Positions 168-44,468 of a stretch of 60,958 nucleotides of DNA are shown here, in pieces. Position 1 is the stretch's first letter. The number at the start of each line of letters is the position of its first letter. Origin of the DNA: a virus (lineage: Duplodnaviria; Caudoviricetes). The stretch spans positions 1-60,958 of the IMG/VR virus record IMGVR_UViG_3300045996_002303. The stretch is one strand, 5' to 3'. A program made the position numbers and the translations under genes. Below the pieces are notes generated by a model. The model was not told the DNA's origin and searched no databases. It saw nothing but the letters and a program-made list of their open reading frames with translations.

Positions 168-1988
168 TTAAGCAACTTTTTCAATTTGGGCATCAATTAC
201 TTTATCACTTATTACATCCCCAACTATTACCTTTGCGGTATCAAGCGCTCCGGATATTTCTTTCGCATAAGAAAGCAATTTTATCTTTTGATCTTTAAGC
301 GGTTTACCTGGGAAGTCCGCATCTTCATCAATTGCACGCTGTACAAACTCGTTGATATTACTGCTTACTATATACGTTTCCTGCAATATCCCTTTATTTG
401 ATAACCTTGCCATCTTTTCATCTTCGCTGATATTTGGCAATGGGTCCAGCTTTAAAATAAGGGAAACCAAGTCGCGAACCGATTCATCAGTGTTGAACCG
501 CTTACTCGCATAATCAATTTCCATTGCATTGACAATTACCGGGTTTGTCTTTCCGGTTTTGGCCGAGTTTAATTCAGCCTGCACGTTAGTGATGGACAAT
601 AGATCATATTTTTCAGGTACTGGTATCTGTGGCAACATTTTATCAATCTCCTCGAAAGTGTAAATATTCTTATATCTGTAGTAAGCGATTATCTTATACG
701 TGCTATCCATTATCTTAACCAGATCTTCAGCAATGGCATGTATTGTATTATTCTGCTCATCCCGGTCCACCTGCTTGGATATGCCGCTCTCTGCCAAAGG
801 AACCTGCGCCAAGTCCTGAAAGTTAATTGCTGCTAGACCATTATAAATGTGCTGCTCAACGCTTTTTTCCATAAGTGCCACTATCTCTACGTCCTTTTCA
901 ACGTAGCCGGCAGGAGGGTTTGGTATTGTTCCGCCACCTTCAATGCTATTAGTAGGGCGAATTAGCAATTTAGAATATGGACCCGCTGCGATATATCCAT
1001 TATTGCATCCAACGTTGTCACACGGTATTTGTGTGGGTATAGACGCATCGCATCCTTCATACCACGAAGTATTTCGCCTTTTCCCTGTCCCCTTACATGA
1101 AGAGCATTCTTGTTGCGTAAACTCCCAACGTTCGGGGTAAATGTGTAATACCTTAGCCGCCTGCAGGTCACTATACTCACGCAGCGCTTCATCCATTTCT
1201 GGCAAAATTCCGGCTATCCGGCTTTCGTAAAGGAAGTTATGTCCTTCCGTTTCGCATACGATACCACCTAATTTGAAGCATGGCAAAATCCCTAAGTCGT
1301 GTTCATATACCAGGAATGGCTGCATATTCCCTTTTGCATCCACCTGATCATATCTGATTATTGCTATAGTATCTACATAATAGTACGATTTCCCGTTTTC
1401 GATTGCGCCTTTTTTTGTTATATAGGTACAACCAAGCGGATTGTTCAAAATTGCATGATCATCATACTCATATTTAATCACATCACAGCAATCAAACAAT
1501 ACCGGGTAAGGTTGTAGAAAATCTGTTGCCGGTATTTCGGTTGTTAAAGGCATTATTAAAACAACCCCATTAGAGTCTGTTAGGTATTTTTTCAGAACAA
1601 CGGAAAATACCCAGTTAGTTACAGATTCAAAGTATGGGAATTTTTTTTCGCAATAATCTTCCAGGCTTTCGCCTTCACGTATTCTTGTGAAAGTACTTAG
1701 TTCTGGATATTTAATTGCCCAATCGGAGCTACGGCGAATTTTGCCTAAGCTTGATAATATCCGGCTGAATGTCGGCTTTGTTTTAGGCACCCATATCTTT
1801 TTACGATATTCCTGAACTTCCAGTGGCTCGTTTGGGCGCCTGCACTCAATAAGTTCTTCAGGATAACAACCGTCAGAATGCGGCTCAAACTCCTGACATT
1901 TTTCATTCGCTTTCTTATAATAAAAATGCGTTTGCTTATCAGTAAAATAAGGCTTTAACTTATCGTATGCTGGTAATTCGTAGGCCAT
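168..1988 (-). CDS. Portal protein (probable start MAYELP at 1988), with CxxCxGxG zinc-finger-like insertion
   Basis: About 606 aa, immediately upstream of the minor head gene; portal-like ESGISKQVDR segment. Confidence 0.75.
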   Translation of the reverse strand: MAYELPAYDKLKPYFTDKQTHFYYKKANEKCQEFEPHSDGCYPEELIECRRPNEPLEVQEYRKKIWVPKTKPTFSRILSSLGKIRRSSDWAIKYPELSTFTRIREGESLEDYCEKKFPYFESVTNWVFSVVLKKYLTDSNGVVLIMPLTTEIPATDFLQPYPVLFDCCDVIKYEYDDHAILNNPLGCTYITKKGAIENGKSYYYVDTIAIIRYDQVDAKGNMQPFLVYEHDLGILPCFKLGGIVCETEGHNFLYESRIAGILPEMDEALREYSDLQAAKVLHIYPERWEFTQQECSSCKGTGKRRNTSWYEGCDASIPTQIPCDNVGCNNGYIAAGPYSKLLIRPTNSIEGGGTIPNPPAGYVEKDVEIVALMEKSVEQHIYNGLAAINFQDLAQVPLAESGISKQVDRDEQNNTIHAIAEDLVKIMDSTYKIIAYYRYKNIYTFEEIDKMLPQIPVPEKYDLLSITNVQAELNSAKTGKTNPVIVNAMEIDYASKRFNTDESVRDLVSLILKLDPLPNISEDEKMARLSNKGILQETYIVSSNINEFVQRAIDEDADFPGKPLKDQKIKLLSYAKEISGALDTAKVIVGDVISDKVIDAQIEKVA

Positions 1989-4783: not shown

Positions 4784-6987
4784 TATGAATATTTAATTTT
4801 AAGTACAAAATCCGCTTCTCCTTTATTCAGGCGATAGCGCAAATCTTTGATATAGCCTTTTCTCCACTCCCCTGTTCCGCACTGGAATGAAATATACCCA
4901 TATGGGTTCGCCTTTAATGTTTTATAATCGGATACGCTAAGAGGATACTTTAAAGTAGCATAGTCTGGCTTCCATAAAGGGGTTGCCTGGGCGACATCGA
5001 CGAAATCCATCTTACTTAAATCTCGGTTCTCTGCTTTAACCCCATTTTCTAGTTTGCAAGTCGGGTAAGCGCCAGCAATTTGGCCGGCAGCCAGGAAATT
5101 GCCAGTACCGGAACTGAAGTAAAGCTTATTTTCAGAGTCGTTAATATTGGGATAACTATTTGCAATTGACTTAAACCATCTCATTAAGTTGCTGTATGGC
5201 CTAATCCGCCAATTGTACAATGTTTGCGGGCTGAAAACATTCGAAGCATTATCAATATTGCCTTGTTCCACCCGAAAGGTATATGCCTGACGTTCAACAC
5301 AAATAATAAATGTCTCATTATCGTATGAGGTATCTGCAGCGCCTGTGGTGGCAAAACTTTGCTGCCTGGTGGTCTCAATCGGATAACTACCTGCTACAAA
5401 CTTAGAGGTTATATCAAGTGGGTTATTAACTGATGTCAATATCGTTCTGTACTCCCGGTTGCTATTCGGCTCGTCGAGACCGTTTATTCTTTCAACTTCC
5501 CATTTTTGGTAACCGGACCTTATTAAGCTGTAATGCAATTGTTCTTGAACTGATATTTCGGCCTCCGGGACATATGGCAAAGCCAAAATTTCATCATCCT
5601 GGTAAAAGTATTCAACCGATTCAATACGCAACCAATCAAAACCAGAAATAAAAGGATTTGGTTCTATCCCCATGCCAATGTTATCAACCCCACGAAGCCC
5701 TTCAAATAACTCTTTGAGAGAGGCAAAAAAGGAAGCATTTGGCGCCTTTCGTATTTTCAACCCGCTGGTTAATACCCGTAATGAACCGCAGCCATCTTCT
5801 ACGCTCACATATGGTTGGCTGTCGGTTCGACCATAGTAATCAGATTTAACCCGTAGGCAATTATCCGTAATAGCCTCTGCCGCCCTGCTCAATGTTTCGT
5901 TGACCATGTATACTCTCGCATCTGTACTGGGGCACGCCTTAATAGCATCAATATCAATTGACGTATTGGTATCGAAATGTACATCCATCGTACTGTCTCC
6001 GCCTTCCACAACTAGGCTTACTTCTATAACAGAATAAAAACCGAGTCCATCTGTAATTGTGGTCGTTCCGGTTAAAGTGTTGTCAAATGTTATATTTAAT
6101 GGACCGTCTGTGGGTCCTGTATACAATGTTGTTTCAGCGACTAAATCATGGTCTACGAATATATTGCCGATCGCATCCCATTTGAATAGTTTATGTTTAA
6201 CTGTTGACAGCTTGAGATTTGTTGAAATTGTCAATTCGCCTTTATACCTCGATGTATACACAAAACTGCCATCGAAACATTCAATAATATCTTCAAATAA
6301 CAACTGAGGTGTAATTGGCCCGTCGCAACCGTCTGTTACCGCTGCGTTACTCGTGACGCAATTATTAATTCCGATTAATTGACCTGTTTGGATATTGTTA
6401 TATCTTTCTACCGAATAATCTGGCCGTAAATAAATAGTTGCGAATGTCAACCCTCCGATATTGTCAAATGCTAAGCTACTATCATATCCATCAACACCTA
6501 CACTCCCATCAACCGCAGCCTGCAGTTCCTTGGCCGGCAACTCCATTTCAAAATTCATCTTATCATACTGCTGAAGTGCGGACAGCTTACTAAAGGTCAG
6601 GGTGCTGTCAATGTCCACCTTCTGGTCATACCTGTTGCGTAAAGTCATCAGGCAACCGATTTGTTCAACTGGTACTTTTACCAGACAAGTGTTGCCGCAA
6701 GTAGCTGAATACTTCCCAAAATCAAGCCTGCCCTCAAAAATAGTTTCGAGTTCTTCGTATACTCCACATGCTTGTAATGCGCGGAATGTAACACTTGCCT
6801 TTAATCCTTGCGTTTCTTTAATATTTATTAAATATGTTGCAGCAACGCCGTAAAAAGCAAGCTCCGAGGTACTAGCCTCGAAGAATATGCCATGCCAGGT
6901 ATCGTCCCGCTTCATGGTCAATACCATATCCGAAAAACCCTGTGGCTCCTCTATCTCTAAATCGTCTAAGTAGAATTCGAAGTACAT
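4783..6987 (-). CDS. Putative tail tip/hub protein
   Basis: 734 aa, beta-rich, directly after the tape measure gene with 1-nt stop/start overlap. Confidence 0.6.
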   Translation of the reverse strand: MYFEFYLDDLEIEEPQGFSDMVLTMKRDDTWHGIFFEASTSELAFYGVAATYLINIKETQGLKASVTFRALQACGVYEELETIFEGRLDFGKYSATCGNTCLVKVPVEQIGCLMTLRNRYDQKVDIDSTLTFSKLSALQQYDKMNFEMELPAKELQAAVDGSVGVDGYDSSLAFDNIGGLTFATIYLRPDYSVERYNNIQTGQLIGINNCVTSNAAVTDGCDGPITPQLLFEDIIECFDGSFVYTSRYKGELTISTNLKLSTVKHKLFKWDAIGNIFVDHDLVAETTLYTGPTDGPLNITFDNTLTGTTTITDGLGFYSVIEVSLVVEGGDSTMDVHFDTNTSIDIDAIKACPSTDARVYMVNETLSRAAEAITDNCLRVKSDYYGRTDSQPYVSVEDGCGSLRVLTSGLKIRKAPNASFFASLKELFEGLRGVDNIGMGIEPNPFISGFDWLRIESVEYFYQDDEILALPYVPEAEISVQEQLHYSLIRSGYQKWEVERINGLDEPNSNREYRTILTSVNNPLDITSKFVAGSYPIETTRQQSFATTGAADTSYDNETFIICVERQAYTFRVEQGNIDNASNVFSPQTLYNWRIRPYSNLMRWFKSIANSYPNINDSENKLYFSSGTGNFLAAGQIAGAYPTCKLENGVKAENRDLSKMDFVDVAQATPLWKPDYATLKYPLSVSDYKTLKANPYGYISFQCGTGEWRKGYIKDLRYRLNKGEADFVLKIKYS

Positions 6988-9964: not shown

Positions 9965-10546
9965 TTACTTAAATTTCCAGATAAAGCCTTTATATGATTT
10001 ATCAGCGCCAGAGCAAACGCCTTGAATTCCCATAACCCTAATCCCTAATTCTCTAGCAGCATCAGACATGCTCGCGAATTCGTTTATAAAGACACCAGCC
10101 TTCGTAAATTGCAATACTGGTTTAGACTTATGATGATCCTTGCCGAACTTACCAGATGAAGGTGCTTTTCTTAATTTATTTGCGTAAGCATGCTTTATAT
10201 TTTCGGAATACGTCGCCCATTCAAGATTGCCAACGTAGTTGTCTGTTTTAATCGCATTCCTATGGTTAATAATTGGCTTTCTTAAAGGGTTATTGAGAAA
10301 ATGTGATGCGACTAATGAATGGATGCAGAAGGTCTTTTTAGTTCCGCTATTTGATAATGTTGTCATAAGGTATCCGTTCGATGCCGCCGAGGCAGACATT
10401 AATTTTCTGTGCATTAGGCTTTTAACCTCTCCATGGTTCGATATCTCATAAAGCCCTTCATAACCTTTAATAGGTTTCCAGAACTTTAAAACGTTGCTGC
10501 CATTATCAATTCTAAGGGCTAAAAAATTATGTTGTGTTTCTGCCAC
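9965..10546 (-). CDS. NUMOD4-HNH homing endonuclease with C-terminal NUMOD1
   Basis: WKPIKGYEGLYEISNHG, INHRNAIKTDNYVGNLEW, YKGFIWK. Confidence 0.88.
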   Translation of the reverse strand: MAETQHNFLALRIDNGSNVLKFWKPIKGYEGLYEISNHGEVKSLMHRKLMSASAASNGYLMTTLSNSGTKKTFCIHSLVASHFLNNPLRKPIINHRNAIKTDNYVGNLEWATYSENIKHAYANKLRKAPSSGKFGKDHHKSKPVLQFTKAGVFINEFASMSDAARELGIRVMGIQGVCSGADKSYKGFIWKFK

Positions 10547-14145: not shown

Positions 14146-14724
14146 TTAAATCGCATTCTTTAACCCATAATTCGACATAGCCATTATTTTAGCATATTCT
14201 TTTTTGTATCTTCTGCCCGCACAAATATTTATAATTGTCGCTTCTGATGCATCCATTTGCGAAGCAATTTCTTTAGCAGATTGTCCATTCCTGAAACGAG
14301 CAATTAATATTTTCAGAATGTCAACTTCGCTGAATTTTGCCTTACAATGTTTGGCACCATGGCGATTACTAATAAAGTCGACACCGTGTTGAGAATTTTG
14401 GCTATAGCTACACCATTCTAAATTATTCAATTCGTTATTTTTACGATTGCCGTCAATATGGTTTACTACCTGATAATCAAGCGGGTTAGGTATAAAATGT
14501 TCCGCAATAAGCCTATGTATAAACCCGGTTGTTCGCACATTGTCAATTGACATCACAATGGTCCAGTAACCATGACTAAGACCGGGTTTAAGTAGTTTGG
14601 GCTGTAATCGTGGCCTTCCATGGAAATAAAGACTTTTGACCGTCCCTTTATTCGAAATTTCGTATTTTCCATCGGTGCCATTTATTGGAATGAATACCTC
14701 TTCCATAAGAATTCCTTTCATCAA
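14146..14724 (-). CDS. NUMOD4-HNH endonuclease
   Basis: YEISNKG, HRLIAEHFIPNP, VNHIDGNRKNNELNNLEW. Confidence 0.88.
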   Translation of the reverse strand: MMKGILMEEVFIPINGTDGKYEISNKGTVKSLYFHGRPRLQPKLLKPGLSHGYWTIVMSIDNVRTTGFIHRLIAEHFIPNPLDYQVVNHIDGNRKNNELNNLEWCSYSQNSQHGVDFISNRHGAKHCKAKFSEVDILKILIARFRNGQSAKEIASQMDASEATIINICAGRRYKKEYAKIMAMSNYGLKNAI

Positions 14725-20861: not shown

Positions 20862-21183
20862 TACCTAACGGTGATTTGTTTGAATAAATAGCAGGCGGGC
20901 GCTCTAGCTTCTTAACATCGTCTTCTAAAAACTTCTTAGGATCATCAATGCCTTCGCCGGTTAATCTGGCAAAAAGTATTTGCGCCTTCGCTGATTCAAC
21001 GATTACCTTCCCTACATCGGAAATAGCTTTACTTCTTTCTATTTCAGTTTTCATTTGCTCTGGTGTAAGATCTTCGTTGCCTAACCTTTCAAGGGCAGCA
21101 AACATGTGATCTCTTAGATCGCTAATTTTATTTTTCATTTGATAACTGTTTAAGGCGTTTATTAATTTGGCGGTTAAGGGCAC
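20845..21183 (-). CDS. Conserved phage protein (start probably 21138, MKNKISDL)
   Basis: DLRDHMFAALERL...EIERSKAI; commonly next to HNH genes. Confidence 0.6.
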   Translation of the reverse strand: MPLTAKLINALNSYQMKNKISDLRDHMFAALERLGNEDLTPEQMKTEIERSKAISDVGKVIVESAKAQILFARLTGEGIDDPKKFLEDDVKKLERPPAIYSNKSPLGIASGE

Positions 21184-21751
21184 CTCTTAATTGGATAATT
21201 TTAAATATTTCAGGGCCAAAACGGAGGGCGCTGTTTCTTATCATTAGCTCGGCATCACTCACGATTTCCAGATTATCAAGGTTGCAATTAAATGGATTGC
21301 GATCTTTGAAAACTATTTTGTGACCGCGAGGAATGGCGCCATTATTTTGCTCCCATATATACCTTTGTAATGGCATGCGCTTGTTTACGTCTAGGTATAT
21401 AACCAATACCGCTTTACCTTCTTTCTCCCATTTTACAATGTCAAGGGGGTTATGTGTATGCCATGGCCTGTTTCCCTTTTGATACTGAGTAGCATGTAAC
21501 CGGGCCATACCCTCTTTTGTCATCCATTCCGTTTGTCTTTTCCCCTTATTGTGCGGAACGTTACCCTTTTTAAACCCCGCATCTTTATAAAACCCTCTTT
21601 TTATTTTTGCGGGCACCTGCAAGCCGAGTAATTCATATCGTTGCCTAATGGTTGGCCCCTGTCGGTCGAGCAGTCGACCTATCTCACAACTTGGTAAGCT
21701 CAAGTAGTGATCTTTAATAAATTGGTCCTCTATAGCGTTAAACCGTTTCAT
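21128..21751 (-). CDS. HNH endonuclease-like protein
   Basis: FKKGNVPHNKG repeats; WEQNNGAIPRGHKIVFKDRNPFNCNLDNL. Confidence 0.75.
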   Translation of the reverse strand: MKRFNAIEDQFIKDHYLSLPSCEIGRLLDRQGPTIRQRYELLGLQVPAKIKRGFYKDAGFKKGNVPHNKGKRQTEWMTKEGMARLHATQYQKGNRPWHTHNPLDIVKWEKEGKAVLVIYLDVNKRMPLQRYIWEQNNGAIPRGHKIVFKDRNPFNCNLDNLEIVSDAELMIRNSALRFGPEIFKIIQLRGALNRQINKRLKQLSNEK

Positions 21752-24116: not shown

Positions 24117-24697
24117 TTGTGGAAGTAGCTACGGTACTCTGCGTCCGTAATTCCACTTTTGCCTTCCGCTAAAATGTGAAGGTCAAAGTCATCAAGCATC
24201 CGGTTTAGCTGATCCAGGGTAATGCCCCACCTCATACGAATGCTCTCAATTAGGGTAGCGCTCGTTTCAAAAAAAATCGTGCGCCTTTCTCTTTCTTCTT
24301 TTCCTTCTTCTAATTCTCTTCCTTCTTGTTTGTGGTTATCTGTTGGTTGCTTGTTGGTTATCTGTTGGTTGATTTCCTGGTTGATTGCTTGATAAGATTG
24401 CCAATTAACTATTGATATTAAGGTACTTCTGTTGGTTGCTGATATGGTTATTTCGTTGGTTGATATTAACTTGTCTATTGCTGTTCGTACTTGCTGCTCC
24501 GTTAGCCCTGTTTGCTCAGCCAAACTATGTCTACCTGTGACAACTTGACCCGCTTTAATTTTAATTCCTTTCCATGATTTTGGCTCCCGGTTAGCTGTCA
24601 ACAACAAGTGGGTGAATAGCTTATATACTGGCACATCTTTATACCAGCCCCATTCCAACATTCTCCTGTGTAATTTGATCCAGCCAGTTTCAGGCAT
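24053..24697 (-). CDS. Replication initiator (lambda O/DnaD-like replisome organiser)
   Basis: GWIKLHRRMLEWGWY N-terminus, wHTH, internal iteron repeats. Confidence 0.8.
   Translation of the reverse strand: MPETGWIKLHRRMLEWGWYKDVPVYKLFTHLLLTANREPKSWKGIKIKAGQVVTGRHSLAEQTGLTEQQVRTAIDKLISTNEITISATNRSTLISIVNWQSYQAINQEINQQITNKQPTDNHKQEGRELEEGKEERERRTIFFETSATLIESIRMRWGITLDQLNRMLDDFDLHILAEGKSGITDAEYRSYFHNWGAKRYLEFKGSTTQNGMVF
24331..24465. repeat. Iteron-like repeats (GTTGGTT core), putative replication origin
   Basis: About eight copies of (G)TTGGTT/TGGTT inside the initiator gene. Confidence 0.65.
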
Positions 24698-25115
24698 TTG
24701 GATTCGGATTTACAGTTCTTAAATATGCGATCATCGATTCATCCAAAAACGCTTTTAGCCTTTTGTGGAACTCGGGCCACTTTTCTACCAGGGTGCATAT
24801 CTGCGCTACCGGCTTGATAAATACCTGGTGGTCGCGCATCAATTCAATCAGTATCTCATTAATCTGCCCGCCGATCAGGTGTTCGGTATTGTGGCATAAC
24901 TCGCAGTAGGTCACCAAATAACAATCTTCATACTCCCACGGTTCCAGATTCGGTAGGTACTTAATATGATGCACGTGCATCGATAATCCTTCTTTCAGGC
25001 AGTCGCGATTACAGGATAGGCAGGTACATTTGTCGCGCTCAAAGATCCGCAAGCGCTTCATCTGCCAGTTGGCGTTTTTTAATTTCTCACTGTAAGTTTG
25101 GTTACTTTCCCCCAT
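24690..25115 (-). CDS. HNH endonuclease family protein
   Basis: RDKCTCLSC...HVHH...CELCHNTEH. Confidence 0.75.
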   Translation of the reverse strand: MGESNQTYSEKLKNANWQMKRLRIFERDKCTCLSCNRDCLKEGLSMHVHHIKYLPNLEPWEYEDCYLVTYCELCHNTEHLIGGQINEILIELMRDHQVFIKPVAQICTLVEKWPEFHKRLKAFLDESMIAYLRTVNPNPNA

Positions 25116-28926: not shown

Positions 28927-29501
28927 TATAACTCGTTTTTATATTTCCAAATAAACCCCTTATGGCTCTTTCTTTCTCCTTTACAAACCTTACAAATATT
29001 TGCAACTTGAAATCCATTCCTTTGAGCTTCAGCAATCGAAGGCCAGAGTTTTACAAATTGCCCATCAAGCGAAAACTGGTTAACCGGTATTGATCTTGCG
29101 CTTAATTCGTTCCTTTTGCCAAGTTGTGGCTTCGTAGACTTGCGAAGATTACTGCGAAACGCATGTTTTAGGTTGTCTGACACGCTTGACCATTTAAGAT
29201 TTGCCTCGTGGTTGTTTGCCTTTACACCATCTTCATGATTAACGTGGGGTAAAGAATCAGGGTTAGGGTGAAAAGTAATGGCGATGATTCTGTTAAGGCG
29301 CTTATTTTTGAACTCCCCATTCTCCCGCATTGACACATATACATACCCATTCTTGTATGTAGTATTAGCAATTACACGCTTTGAAATTTGGTTCACAACA
29401 AATCCTCTTTCATTTGCGCCATAACCGGGAAAGCCTGGAACATCAGTCCAAAGTGTGGGGTTTAACGCGGCTCGTTGTTTGTCACATTTACGTAATTGCA
29501 T
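28926..29501 (-). CDS. HNH homing endonuclease with NUMOD1
   Basis: VNHEDGVKANNHEANLKW; HKGFIWKY. Confidence 0.85.
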   Translation of the reverse strand: MQLRKCDKQRAALNPTLWTDVPGFPGYGANERGFVVNQISKRVIANTTYKNGYVYVSMRENGEFKNKRLNRIIAITFHPNPDSLPHVNHEDGVKANNHEANLKWSSVSDNLKHAFRSNLRKSTKPQLGKRNELSARSIPVNQFSLDGQFVKLWPSIAEAQRNGFQVANICKVCKGERKSHKGFIWKYKNEL

Positions 29502-33246: not shown

Positions 33247-33276
33247 AAAAGTTCAATTTCTGAATGAATAAAAATT

Positions 33277-33356
33277 AACTTAACTAAACAGAACTAAACA
33301 GAACTCCGCTTCACGTCACGCAACTGAACACCAGTTCACAGCACGCCACTCCACGC
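33277..33356 (-). repeat. Pentamer-periodic array 1 (16 units, GTK+NN on minus strand), candidate guide ncRNA
   Basis: Plus strand: aactt aacta aacag aacta aacag aactc cgctt cacgt cacgc aactg aacac cagtt cacag cacgc cactc cacgc; C at position 3 in 15 of 16 units. Confidence 0.85.
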
Positions 33357-33359
33357 TAA

Positions 33360-33920
33360 TTATTTCAAATCGATTAATTCAAACCTTCCGAAGCTCCCGT
33401 TGTTGGTTGGTCTATATGAACCGATACCTACATAGTTACCTGTAGTTGTTACCAACTCGGTTATTGTTTCTTTGGTAATTGTTTTTTCGCCAATTTCCAG
33501 GGTAAAAGCTGCCTGCCATTCAGTCCATTTGGGTCGAACAGTAATTACCCTTGCTTTTACGTTTCGATTAACAGCAGACCTTTTATCAATTACATCATAC
33601 TCCGGTAAAAGAATTTCATCTGGTGTTACCATGAACATGGCTGCAATTATGCTTTTCATGCTCTTAGTTTTAGTGCCAACTTTAGATTTAAGGTAGCCGC
33701 CCCCATTGATTAATGCCATTCGTAATTGATCTGCCGGTATATAACATTTACCGTCGCTGTTTCGGTAGCAATGGTATTCGGCGCGTACAGCATCTTCGTG
33801 GCTCACCTCTGGTCGTTCAATAATGTGCTTTCTGTTTTTCTCCCATTGTTCTAACTTCTGATCATCCATTCGATGTTGCATGTAGGGAGTTAATCCTTTA
33901 ATTGTTACTTGATATTTCAT
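33360..33920 (-). CDS. Solo Cas7/RAMP-like protein (186 aa; true start ATG 33920)
   Basis: RAMP-like YQVTIKGLTPYMQH strand, YIPADQLRMAL (cf. IPGSSLKGAL), C-terminal Gly-rich loop GIGSYRPTNNGSFGRFEL. Confidence 0.75.
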   Translation of the reverse strand: MKYQVTIKGLTPYMQHRMDDQKLEQWEKNRKHIIERPEVSHEDAVRAEYHCYRNSDGKCYIPADQLRMALINGGGYLKSKVGTKTKSMKSIIAAMFMVTPDEILLPEYDVIDKRSAVNRNVKARVITVRPKWTEWQAAFTLEIGEKTITKETITELVTTTGNYVGIGSYRPTNNGSFGRFELIDLK

Positions 33921-33927
33921 ATAAAAA

Positions 33928-33997
33928 AACTTTACTTTGCTAAACGCCACGCGACCTAACAGAACGGAACTACACGGTACCGGACTCTACTTCGCAT
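33928..33997 (-). repeat. Pentamer-periodic array 2 (14 units, GYN+NN on minus strand), candidate guide ncRNA
   Basis: Plus strand: aactt tactt tgcta aacgc cacgc gacct aacag aacgg aacta cacgg taccg gactc tactt cgcat; C at position 3 in 14 of 14 units. Confidence 0.85.
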
Positions 33998-34096
33998 TAA
34001 AATATTATTTCAATAAACTCATTATTCTTGTGCATGCTTTTGCTGCTTGATCGGCACTTAAAGGCACGGATACATGGTCTTTCATTATTATCTGGG

Positions 34097-44015: not shown

Positions 44016-44468
44016 TTAACTAATAATTTTTTTTCTTCTTCCTGTTTGCTTATACTTACCATTATATAATACTTTTTCTACGGGAAGCCCCCGCTTAATT
44101 CTTGCTTTTAAGGCCGGAGCGGTTAGCCCGAGGATGTCAGCCCATGCCTGCACGCATTTAGTTTCCCCATCCTTTGTAATTAAGAAATTGCTTCGCCTGT
44201 TCCTTAGGTTCGTAGTGTAAGTAACATACCGACAGTTATTCGGACTATACCCTTTGTTATTATCTATCCTGTCTAACGTTAATCCTTTCGCCCATCCGTT
44301 ATTAATAGCCCATGTGTAAAATTTTATAAAACCATATCTCCATTCATCACATACATTAATACCCCTTGCTCCATAATTTTCATATCCCTTATAGATCGGG
44401 TTATAACACCTTTGTATCATAGAGCTGTGCACTTTGTATAAAGGGTGTTTAGAAAGACCATGATTCAT
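44016..44468 (-). CDS. HNH-type homing endonuclease
   Basis: HGLSKHPLY..MIQRC..YGARGINVCDEW..LDRIDNNKGYSPNNCR. Confidence 0.85.
   Translation of the reverse strand: MNHGLSKHPLYKVHSSMIQRCYNPIYKGYENYGARGINVCDEWRYGFIKFYTWAINNGWAKGLTLDRIDNNKGYSPNNCRYVTYTTNLRNRRSNFLITKDGETKCVQAWADILGLTAPALKARIKRGLPVEKVLYNGKYKQTGRRKKIIS

Follow-up and report, generated by a model that had tools for sequence, protein, structure and literature searches.

The DNA examined here is a complete virus record of 60,958 bp with direct terminal repeats (IMG/VR record IMGVR_UViG_3300045996_002303; Duplodnaviria, Caudoviricetes), and this whole stretch is referred to as the window. At the locus in question, a minus-strand gene for a stand-alone protein of 186 amino acids, here called vipr, is bracketed by two arrays of pentamers that lie in phase on the vipr strand, each separated from the open reading frame (ORF) by 5 nt (Table 1). 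A previous sequence-only reading of the window had picked out this ORF for its RAMP/Cas7 hallmarks, together with flanking arrays of 16 and 14 pentamers built from a GTN triplet and a variable dinucleotide. The ORF is real and the quoted motifs are present in its product (GLTP, CYIPADQLRMAL and GIGSYRPTNNGSFGRF), and the two arrays are borne out by the run scores given below. The gaps of 3 and 7 nt that had been given for them are corrected to 5 nt on both sides, and their outer coordinates were off by about 2 nt. As to the repeat unit, the period of five nucleotides stands and the constancy of GTN does not: the unit is GY/NNN, the third position being free both in the upstream array and across the family.

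Homologues of the vipr product align with it from residue 1. A Pfam scan of the protein returned zero matches, a search of the GenBank phage collection gave 0 matches at E≤1e-3, and the PHROGs match is phrog_4652 (E 3.5e-22), a family of unknown function. Against PDB sequences, phmmer matched residues 7-181 of the protein to 36pp_D, 'SUSP1 Vipr protein', at E 6.2e-7, and a profile of 22 homologues matched the same entry at E 2e-15 over residues 4-184, which is nearly the full length. We also predicted the structure of the protein with AlphaFold2 (predicted local distance difference test score, pLDDT, 77.8; predicted template modelling score, pTM, 0.73) and compared the predicted fold with solved structures using Foldseek. 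The best matches are Cas7-family subunits (Cmr4, Csm3 and type VII Cas7), with E-values from 1.3e-5; there are 63 PDB matches at E≤0.001, the best of them with template modelling (TM) scores of 0.42-0.58. The G-loop GIGSYRP..FGRF is conserved in this branch. Given the 36pp_D matches and the match to the Cas7-family fold, we assign the predicted vipr product to the RAMPs and, specifically, identify it as a Vipr homologue.

Vipr belongs to VIPR (Viral Interference Programmable Repeat), an RNA-guided DNA-silencing system described in two preprints (10.64898/2026.04.26.720920; 10.64898/2026.04.26.720927). According to the preprint text available, a phage-encoded Vipr protein polymerises on vrRNAs composed of GGY/NN units, with one protomer per 5-nt repeat. 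The filament sequesters GGY, the NN bases pair with double-stranded DNA (dsDNA) such that every third target base is skipped, and competing phages or prophages are silenced (10.64898/2026.04.26.720920; 10.64898/2026.04.26.720927). The described set comprises 667 loci of seven types, for which six vap genes are named (10.64898/2026.04.26.720920), so that one type may lack a vap gene, to judge from these two counts. VIPR has further been proposed as an ancestor of the CRISPR RAMPs and as a programmable silencer.

To measure the periodicity of the arrays, we scored phased G-Y runs on both strands of the whole window, adding 1 for each fitting unit and subtracting 2 otherwise. The upstream array scores 14 and the downstream array 13; no run elsewhere in the window exceeds 6, and the maximum in each of 100 simulated windows (first-order Markov, dinucleotide-matched) was 4-7. 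The periodicity is genuine and lies far outside chance expectation. Of the 30 pooled units, 29 have G at position 1 (14/14 upstream, 15/16 downstream) and all have a pyrimidine at position 2, with T in 12 units and C in 2 upstream and T in 15 and C in 1 downstream. Position 3 of the downstream array is G or T in 16/16 units. Since neither the upstream array nor the family places a constraint on position 3, the repeat unit is GY/NNN, in which G and Y are fixed and three positions vary. Each array closes with AT-only units followed by a T-run; the upstream ending 'GTTTA GCAAA' also closes the array of locus L004, and Tandem Repeats Finder (TRF) detects a 10-nt internal duplication in the downstream array. 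An identical 10-mer, TTGAAATAAT, precedes each array, at a distance of 8 nt from the upstream one and 4 nt from the downstream one, where it overlaps the vipr stop codon. It is possibly a promoter element, a role that we put forward only as an inference because a sigma-70 consensus scan at the locus did no better than its own shuffles.

The phased arrays are strictly linked to vipr across the family. Within a 90%-clustered collection, 813 sequences are homologous to the vipr protein at E≤0.001. The profile reaches into the wider family, with 4,651 cluster representatives at E≤0.001, of which 1,054 pass E≤1e-10 and 27 pass E≤1e-30. We compared 14 IMG/VR loci (45-71% identity) and 3 genome-contig loci, one of which duplicates a viral locus. 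Same-strand GY/NNN arrays adjoin vipr in 17/17 of these (14/14 IMG/VR and 3/3 genome loci), and the IMG/VR loci carry from 1 to 8 or more arrays each, directly upstream and/or downstream of the gene. Applied to the whole genomes of 13 relatives' phage records and the window (14 genomes, about 1 Mb), the run scan yielded 39 runs with a score of at least 7, and 38 of them adjoin vipr on its strand. Composition was measured on 42 arrays with 738 units, of which 97% have G at position 1; at position 2, 88% have T and 12% have C. Positions 3, 4 and 5 are near-maximally variable, with entropies of 1.89, 1.89 and 1.83 bits, or 1.91, 1.90 and 1.87 bits once the three final units per array are excluded. 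Family arrays close with two or three AT-only units (GTAAA, GTATA or GTTTA, then GTTTT or GTTCT) and a T-run, an ending that both window arrays share. In some relatives the array is followed by a short hairpin, of which L012 has a compensatory variant; the window has no such hairpin. Rfam, searched with 10 loci, places neither a ribozyme nor a known RNA at the arrays.

Arrays of this kind could in principle act as DNA, as iterons or phased protein-binding sites, or could be degenerate leftovers beside a protein that works without them, and the result of the sigma-70-type promoter scan is what such a reading would lead one to expect. We nevertheless regard it as very improbable, since the fixed G lies on the vipr strand in 38/39 runs, the AT-only ending and T-run are conserved, the arrays co-occur with vipr in 17/17 loci while their variable bases turn over, and homologous arrays are described as proven RNAs bound by Vipr in the preprint text (10.64898/2026.04.26.720920).

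In our interpretation, the locus is very probably a VIPR locus of a temperate phage with a host that is probably a Bacteroidota bacterium, where vrRNA-guided Vipr would silence a competing mobile element. Both arrays would be transcribed on the vipr strand to give two vrRNAs of roughly 70-80 nt each. Vipr protomers would bind these one per pentamer, holding the constant G-Y, which would correspond to G2-Y3 of GGY, and exposing the variable bases. The resulting Vipr-vrRNA filament would then bind the dsDNA of the competing element and silence it. Filament formation, DNA targeting and silencing are attributed to the locus on the strength of the preprints. The sequence-only reading had likewise proposed a gapped guide and had pointed to a resemblance to VIPR. 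The preprints do describe such an architecture, and the protein is homologous to SUSP1 Vipr; the gapped guide is supported, with a mechanism that we would draw from homology. Two of the checks it had suggested gave results in line with it, as Foldseek returned Cas7-family subunits as best matches and the flanks of all 17 homologue loci are periodic. The novelty that it had assumed is removed by the 2026 preprints: this kind of system is already known (April-June 2026), and the locus adds one more member with GY/NNN ('YNNNG') repeats.

The best-described relatives are the type II VIPRs (Escherichia phage SUSP1 and a Pseudomonas fulva prophage; PDB 36pp). Like the window locus, these are phage-encoded and consist of a homologous stand-alone small RAMP (E 2e-15) with pentamer arrays of 9-16 units on the gene strand at both flanks; conservation extends to the residues that hold G2 and Y3. 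They differ in that the type II repeat is GGY/NN, whereas that of the window is GY/NNN, and in that the G1-contacting residue is Asp in type II and Ser in the window. Furthermore, the window arrays end in AT-only units and a T-run, with no pseudoknot tail like that of SUSP1; the window has no recognisable vap gene; the window host is probably a member of the Bacteroidota; and sequence identity between SUSP1 Vipr and the window protein is low (HMMER E 6e-7). Two cultured temperate phages also encode Vipr homologues with weak, near full-length tblastn matches to the window protein, namely Pseudomonas phage vB_Pae_LESphi2 (P21_9) and Gordonia phage UmaThurman (gp39). In both, vipr occupies a place equivalent to that in the window, beside the immunity region or repressor, and pentamer arrays adjoin it. 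Unlike the window, both have arrays of the canonical GGY/NN form, and the G-loop residue is Asp (LESphi2) or Glu (UmaThurman) instead of Ser. The UmaThurman array underlies gp40, an annotated 'hypothetical protein' that is probably not a real gene.

A candidate structural basis for the relaxed repeat is found in the protein. In the cryo-electron microscopy structure of SUSP1 Vipr, as far as the preprint text describes it, G1 is contacted by H17 and D177, G2 by R138 and W178, and Y3 by E71, M72, R179, C173 and T175 (10.64898/2026.04.26.720927). In the HMMER alignment of SUSP1 Vipr with the window protein, H17 corresponds to H16, R138 to R129, R179 to R170 and W178 to Y169, such that the residues holding G2 and Y3 are kept, and the G1-contacting D177 corresponds to Ser168. 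Ser168, R129 and R170 are invariant in 22/22 aligned branch members, and an acidic residue occupies the position equivalent to Ser168 in three GGY-type Viprs (D in SUSP1, D in LESphi2 and E in UmaThurman). These alignments fit a model in which the window G is G2, the window Y is Y3, and a G1 pocket that lacks the acidic contact leaves that base free; this branch would then have lost recognition of the first G, leaving three variable bases per unit. With three GGY systems set against a single GY branch, the association of Ser with the relaxed repeat amounts to a correlation and does not test the model. The Asp-to-Ser change at the G1 contact would provide a simple and testable structural reason for the relaxed repeat.

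The class 1 CRISPR-Cas Cas7 subunits (Csm3, Cmr4 and type VII Cas7) share the RRM/G-loop/thumb fold with the window protein (Foldseek E about 1e-5, TM 0.5-0.58). They polymerise with a fixed step on guide RNA, as the window protein presumably does, although the step is 6 nt for Cas7 and 5 nt here, and sequence identity is 7-16%. Their guide consists of a spacer and a repeat handle, whereas the guide here consists of the repeats themselves. Class 1 systems also have a CRISPR array and other cas genes. As the sequence-only reading had stated, the window has neither at the sensitivity used: no direct-repeat family of at least three copies occurs in it, and cas genes gave 0 matches among 100 window ORFs against PADLOC and 0 among 71 ORFs against PHROGs. 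The Cas7 fold and the phage origin of the protein would also be expected of a Cas7 mimic that acts as an anti-CRISPR, with decoy RNAs from the arrays soaking up host class 1 CRISPR components, an alternative that the same reading had raised. We found no support for this and give it almost no credence, as the nearest solved relative is Vipr, for which the available preprint text reports a demonstrated guide function, the arrays are hypervariable in the way of guides and have no fixed decoy sequence, and no element resembling a CRISPR repeat is present in the window.

Several observations weigh against the assignment of the locus to VIPR and to the silencing of competitors. The window arrays do not have the canonical GGY/NN consensus, as only G-Y is fixed and the position equivalent to G1 has an entropy of 1.83 bits when every unit is counted (1.87 bits if the three final units per array are dropped). 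The missing GGY does not exclude membership, however, because the preprint accepts YNNNG among the alternative repeats of some loci, given as 'NNNGG, YNNNG and NNNNG' (Methods, 10.64898/2026.04.26.720920). The window G-Y-N-N-N read cyclically is Y-NNN-G, and it adjoins a Vipr homologue; the portions of that preprint available state no targeting rule or experiment for YNNNG. Unit 5 of the downstream array is a non-canonical CTGGT in which the constant G is broken. No structured 3' tail resembling the SUSP1 pseudoknot is visible at the window arrays, and RNA folding revealed no significant structure in them (z -0.54 upstream, +0.41 downstream). BLASTP clustering across the 17 loci found no conserved neighbour, nor an accessory (vap) gene of the sort that adjoins vipr in most VIPR types.

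The remaining points of this kind come from the search for targets, in which we took the guide dinucleotide to be positions 3-4 of each unit (N4 N5 of SUSP1, by homology), followed by one wildcard. An exact gapped scan of IMG/VR gave 0 matches for upstream units 3-11 and 0 for downstream units 1-10. Upstream units 2-11 had one match among JGI metagenome contigs, L072, in which the flanking units match at 0/8; upstream unit 11 is probably tail and not guide, so that scans including it are over-constrained. When 39 arrays were compared all against all, with mismatches allowed, across 14 phage genomes totalling about 1 Mb, and 7 pairing rules were applied, there was no excess over reversed controls. 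The window guides also have no self-target in the window above the reversed controls, the best being 15/24 versus 17 for one guide and 18/28 versus 18 for the other. An earlier, smaller all-against-all target search likewise yielded nothing, and the upstream pattern with up to 3 mismatches had 0 matches in 15 related records. Two sets of candidate targets were set aside. L072 is judged to be a chance match, lying in a bacterial membrane-protein gene of about 70% G+C content. Upstream units 3-10 match 4 IMG/VR loci with 2 distinct sequences, which look like chance given that units 1-2 match at 0-1/4 and third bases at 0-1/10.

Two guides do have matches of interest. The first is the sole guide of the 78-kb phage L004, which matches the next downstream gene of its own genome at 20/24 guide bases when two bases are read and one is skipped (NN-plus-skip); 0 of 1000 shuffles of the unit order reach 20. 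The target is a PD-(D/E)XK-like ORF, the match is in frame with it, and the skipped base falls on the codon wobble position. Third bases match in only 2/12 units, and the L004 triplets are synonymous with the target codons in 8/8 NN-matched codons, with a different wobble base in 7. This case tentatively backs the NN-plus-skip reading. The L004 guide pattern has 0 matches in IMG/VR, and a search for relatives of the target gene returned only the gene itself. The guide could serve self-regulation or could be aimed at a competitor's homologue of the gene. In the former event, the same VIPR machinery might generally be directed at early or lysogeny genes of the phage itself and not at competitors, which would also suit the position of the window vipr beside the immunity switch. 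We consider such autoregulation improbable, given that L004 is one of 37 arrays tested, that the self-matches of the window guides do not rise above their controls, and that the preprint reports no self-targets at 80% NN match or more (10.64898/2026.04.26.720920).

The second is a match of the downstream window guide. Its units 3-10, a 16-base seed, match 21 IMG/VR loci with about 16 distinct sequences, the best of which is a portal-like gene on L088, a 5.8-kb contig. The guide and this gene agree at 28/33 contiguous bases, comprising 20/22 NN bases and 8/11 third bases, and at 12/17 non-seed positions, which corresponds to P of roughly 0.001-0.01 after about 16 distinct matches. Thirty-six relatives of the L088 portal gene match less well (16-25/33). 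The G+C content of the L088 phage is 58% versus 43% for the window, and the L088 phage group is unrelated.

On the question of whether position 5 is read, L004 and L088 disagree. The reading that we find most likely is the published rule of NN plus one skipped base, under which the first two variable bases of each unit would pair with the target. Alternatively, all three variable bases may be read, either as a contiguous-triplet code in which five RNA bases correspond to three DNA bases without a skip, or as a means of discriminating between synonymous alleles. Position 5 is as variable as positions 3-4, L088 matches at 28/33, the L004 triplets are synonymous with their target codons, and paralogous L005 guides differ mainly at position 5, all of which would favour a three-base reading. 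The two L005 arrays and the L002 array share the unit run …AAA AAT CAA CAY GTN…, and they differ within it mostly at position 5, where the changes look like synonymous codons (K N Q H V); the L005 pattern is compatible either with neutral drift at position 5 or with allele tracking. Against a three-base reading stand the test for stop-codon avoidance at position 5, which was null across 52 guides, the L004 third bases (2/12), the difference in G+C content between the L088 phage and the window, and the SUSP1 thumb, which flips out the third target base according to the structural preprint text (10.64898/2026.04.26.720927). On balance, we think it unlikely that three bases are read; if they were, this would be a second VIPR recognition code. 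The reading rule of the GY/NNN branch is not reported in the preprint text available. The branch is large and its repeats fix two bases only, and the locus is compact, with one gene, two guides and no recognisable accessory gene; its small size would make it a convenient test bed for that rule.

Table 1. Coordinates of the features discussed (positions in the window unless a locus handle or accession is given)
Feature	Coordinates	Strand	Description
vipr gene	33363..33920	(-)	186-aa stand-alone RAMP/Cas7-like protein; ATG at 33920, stop 33362-33360
Upstream vrRNA-like array	33926..33995	(-)	14 GY/NNN pentamers, 33995->33926; units 1-14: GCGAA GTAGA GTCCG GTACC GTGTA GTTCC GTTCT GTTAG GTCGC GTGGC GTTTA GCAAA GTAAA GTTTT
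Upstream array, units 1-10	33946-33995	(-)	Likely guide
Upstream array, units 11-14	33926-33945	(-)	AT-only tail, then T-run
Downstream vrRNA-like array	33275..33354	(-)	16 pentamers, 33354->33275; units 1-16: GTGGA GTGGC GTGCT GTGAA CTGGT GTTCA GTTGC GTGAC GTGAA GCGGA GTTCT GTTTA GTTCT GTTTA GTTAA GTTAA
Downstream array, units 1-10	33305-33354	(-)	Likely guide
Downstream array, units 11-16	33275-33304	(-)	AT-only repeats, then T-run
TTGAAATAAT 10-nt motif	34004..34013	(-)	Upstream of the upstream array
TTGAAATAAT, second copy	33359..33368	(-)	Upstream of the downstream array
HNH/homing-endonuclease genes	9968-10546, 14149-14724, 21131-21751, 24693-25115, 28929-29501, 44019-44468
L004 guide	L004:3561-3620		Sole guide of this locus
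L004 target	L004:4053-4088		In the next downstream gene
L088 match	L088:~304-336	(-)	Portal-like gene
L005 arrays	L005:3789-3888, L005:3924-4043		Share a unit run with L002
L002 array	L002:3806-3920		Shares a unit run with L005
L012 guides	L012:3577-4463		Eight guides
L013 vipr homologue	L013:2953-3546		Interrupted by an in-frame stop
L010 array	L010:2583-2937		71 units
L014 array	L014:3593-4012		84 units
L008 tmRNA	L008:4114-4517		Full-length tmRNA gene
L008 tRNA-like element	L008:3999-4108
LESphi2 Vipr locus (L135)	OQ594955.1 ~5475-5945
UmaThurman Vipr locus (L136)	NC_031249.1 ~33350-33700

The other genes of the window include those for a portal protein, large terminase, endolysin, integrase, Erf, Gam, a DnaD-like loader, a primase-helicase and several methyltransferases. 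The vipr gene lies at the head of a leftward early operon after three small ORFs and beside the immunity region; it is divergent from a 228-aa ORF, and the integrase gene is about 3.5 kb away. None of its neighbours in the window has a Pfam or PADLOC match save for one sub-threshold excisionase-like match. The phage is temperate and its host is probably a Bacteroidota bacterium; the host call is made because a Shine-Dalgarno motif is absent before all 20 window genes inspected and because two of the three genome loci carry metagenome-assembled genome (MAG) labels of Cyclobacteriaceae and Draconibacterium. Comparison of the portal protein with 401 sampled Bacteroidota genomes gave one distant match and no close prophage. 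At least six HNH/homing-endonuclease genes are spread across the window, one adjoining the terminase gene and one adjoining Erf. Another contig, L018, assigned to the MAG of a Candidatus Pacearchaeota (DPANN archaeon), carries two long GY/NNN arrays and, at 57% identity, a vipr of this branch, which is otherwise linked to Bacteroidota; probably a phage contig was mis-binned here.

Several relatives show further variation in locus structure. In L012, the eight guides are separated by 47-nt spacers with the potential to fold into a hairpin (TCTGCATAA...TTATGTAGA); the final one differs in sequence and preserves the pairing (CAACATCA...TGATGTTG). L010 and L014 have very long in-phase arrays in which a TT-starting unit replaces GY every 8-12 units, directly after GTATT or GTTTT. 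These look like several guides fused head to tail in a single register, comparable to the 'staggered arrays' of the preprint. In the 142-kb phage of L013, an in-frame stop divides the vipr homologue into ORFs of 107 and 73 aa and the arrays are short, at 7-8 units; this locus may be decaying. Finally, in the 121-kb phage of L008, vipr is followed at a distance of about 500 nt by a full-length transfer-messenger RNA (tmRNA) gene, with an Rfam score of 90.8 bits, and by a tRNA-like element.

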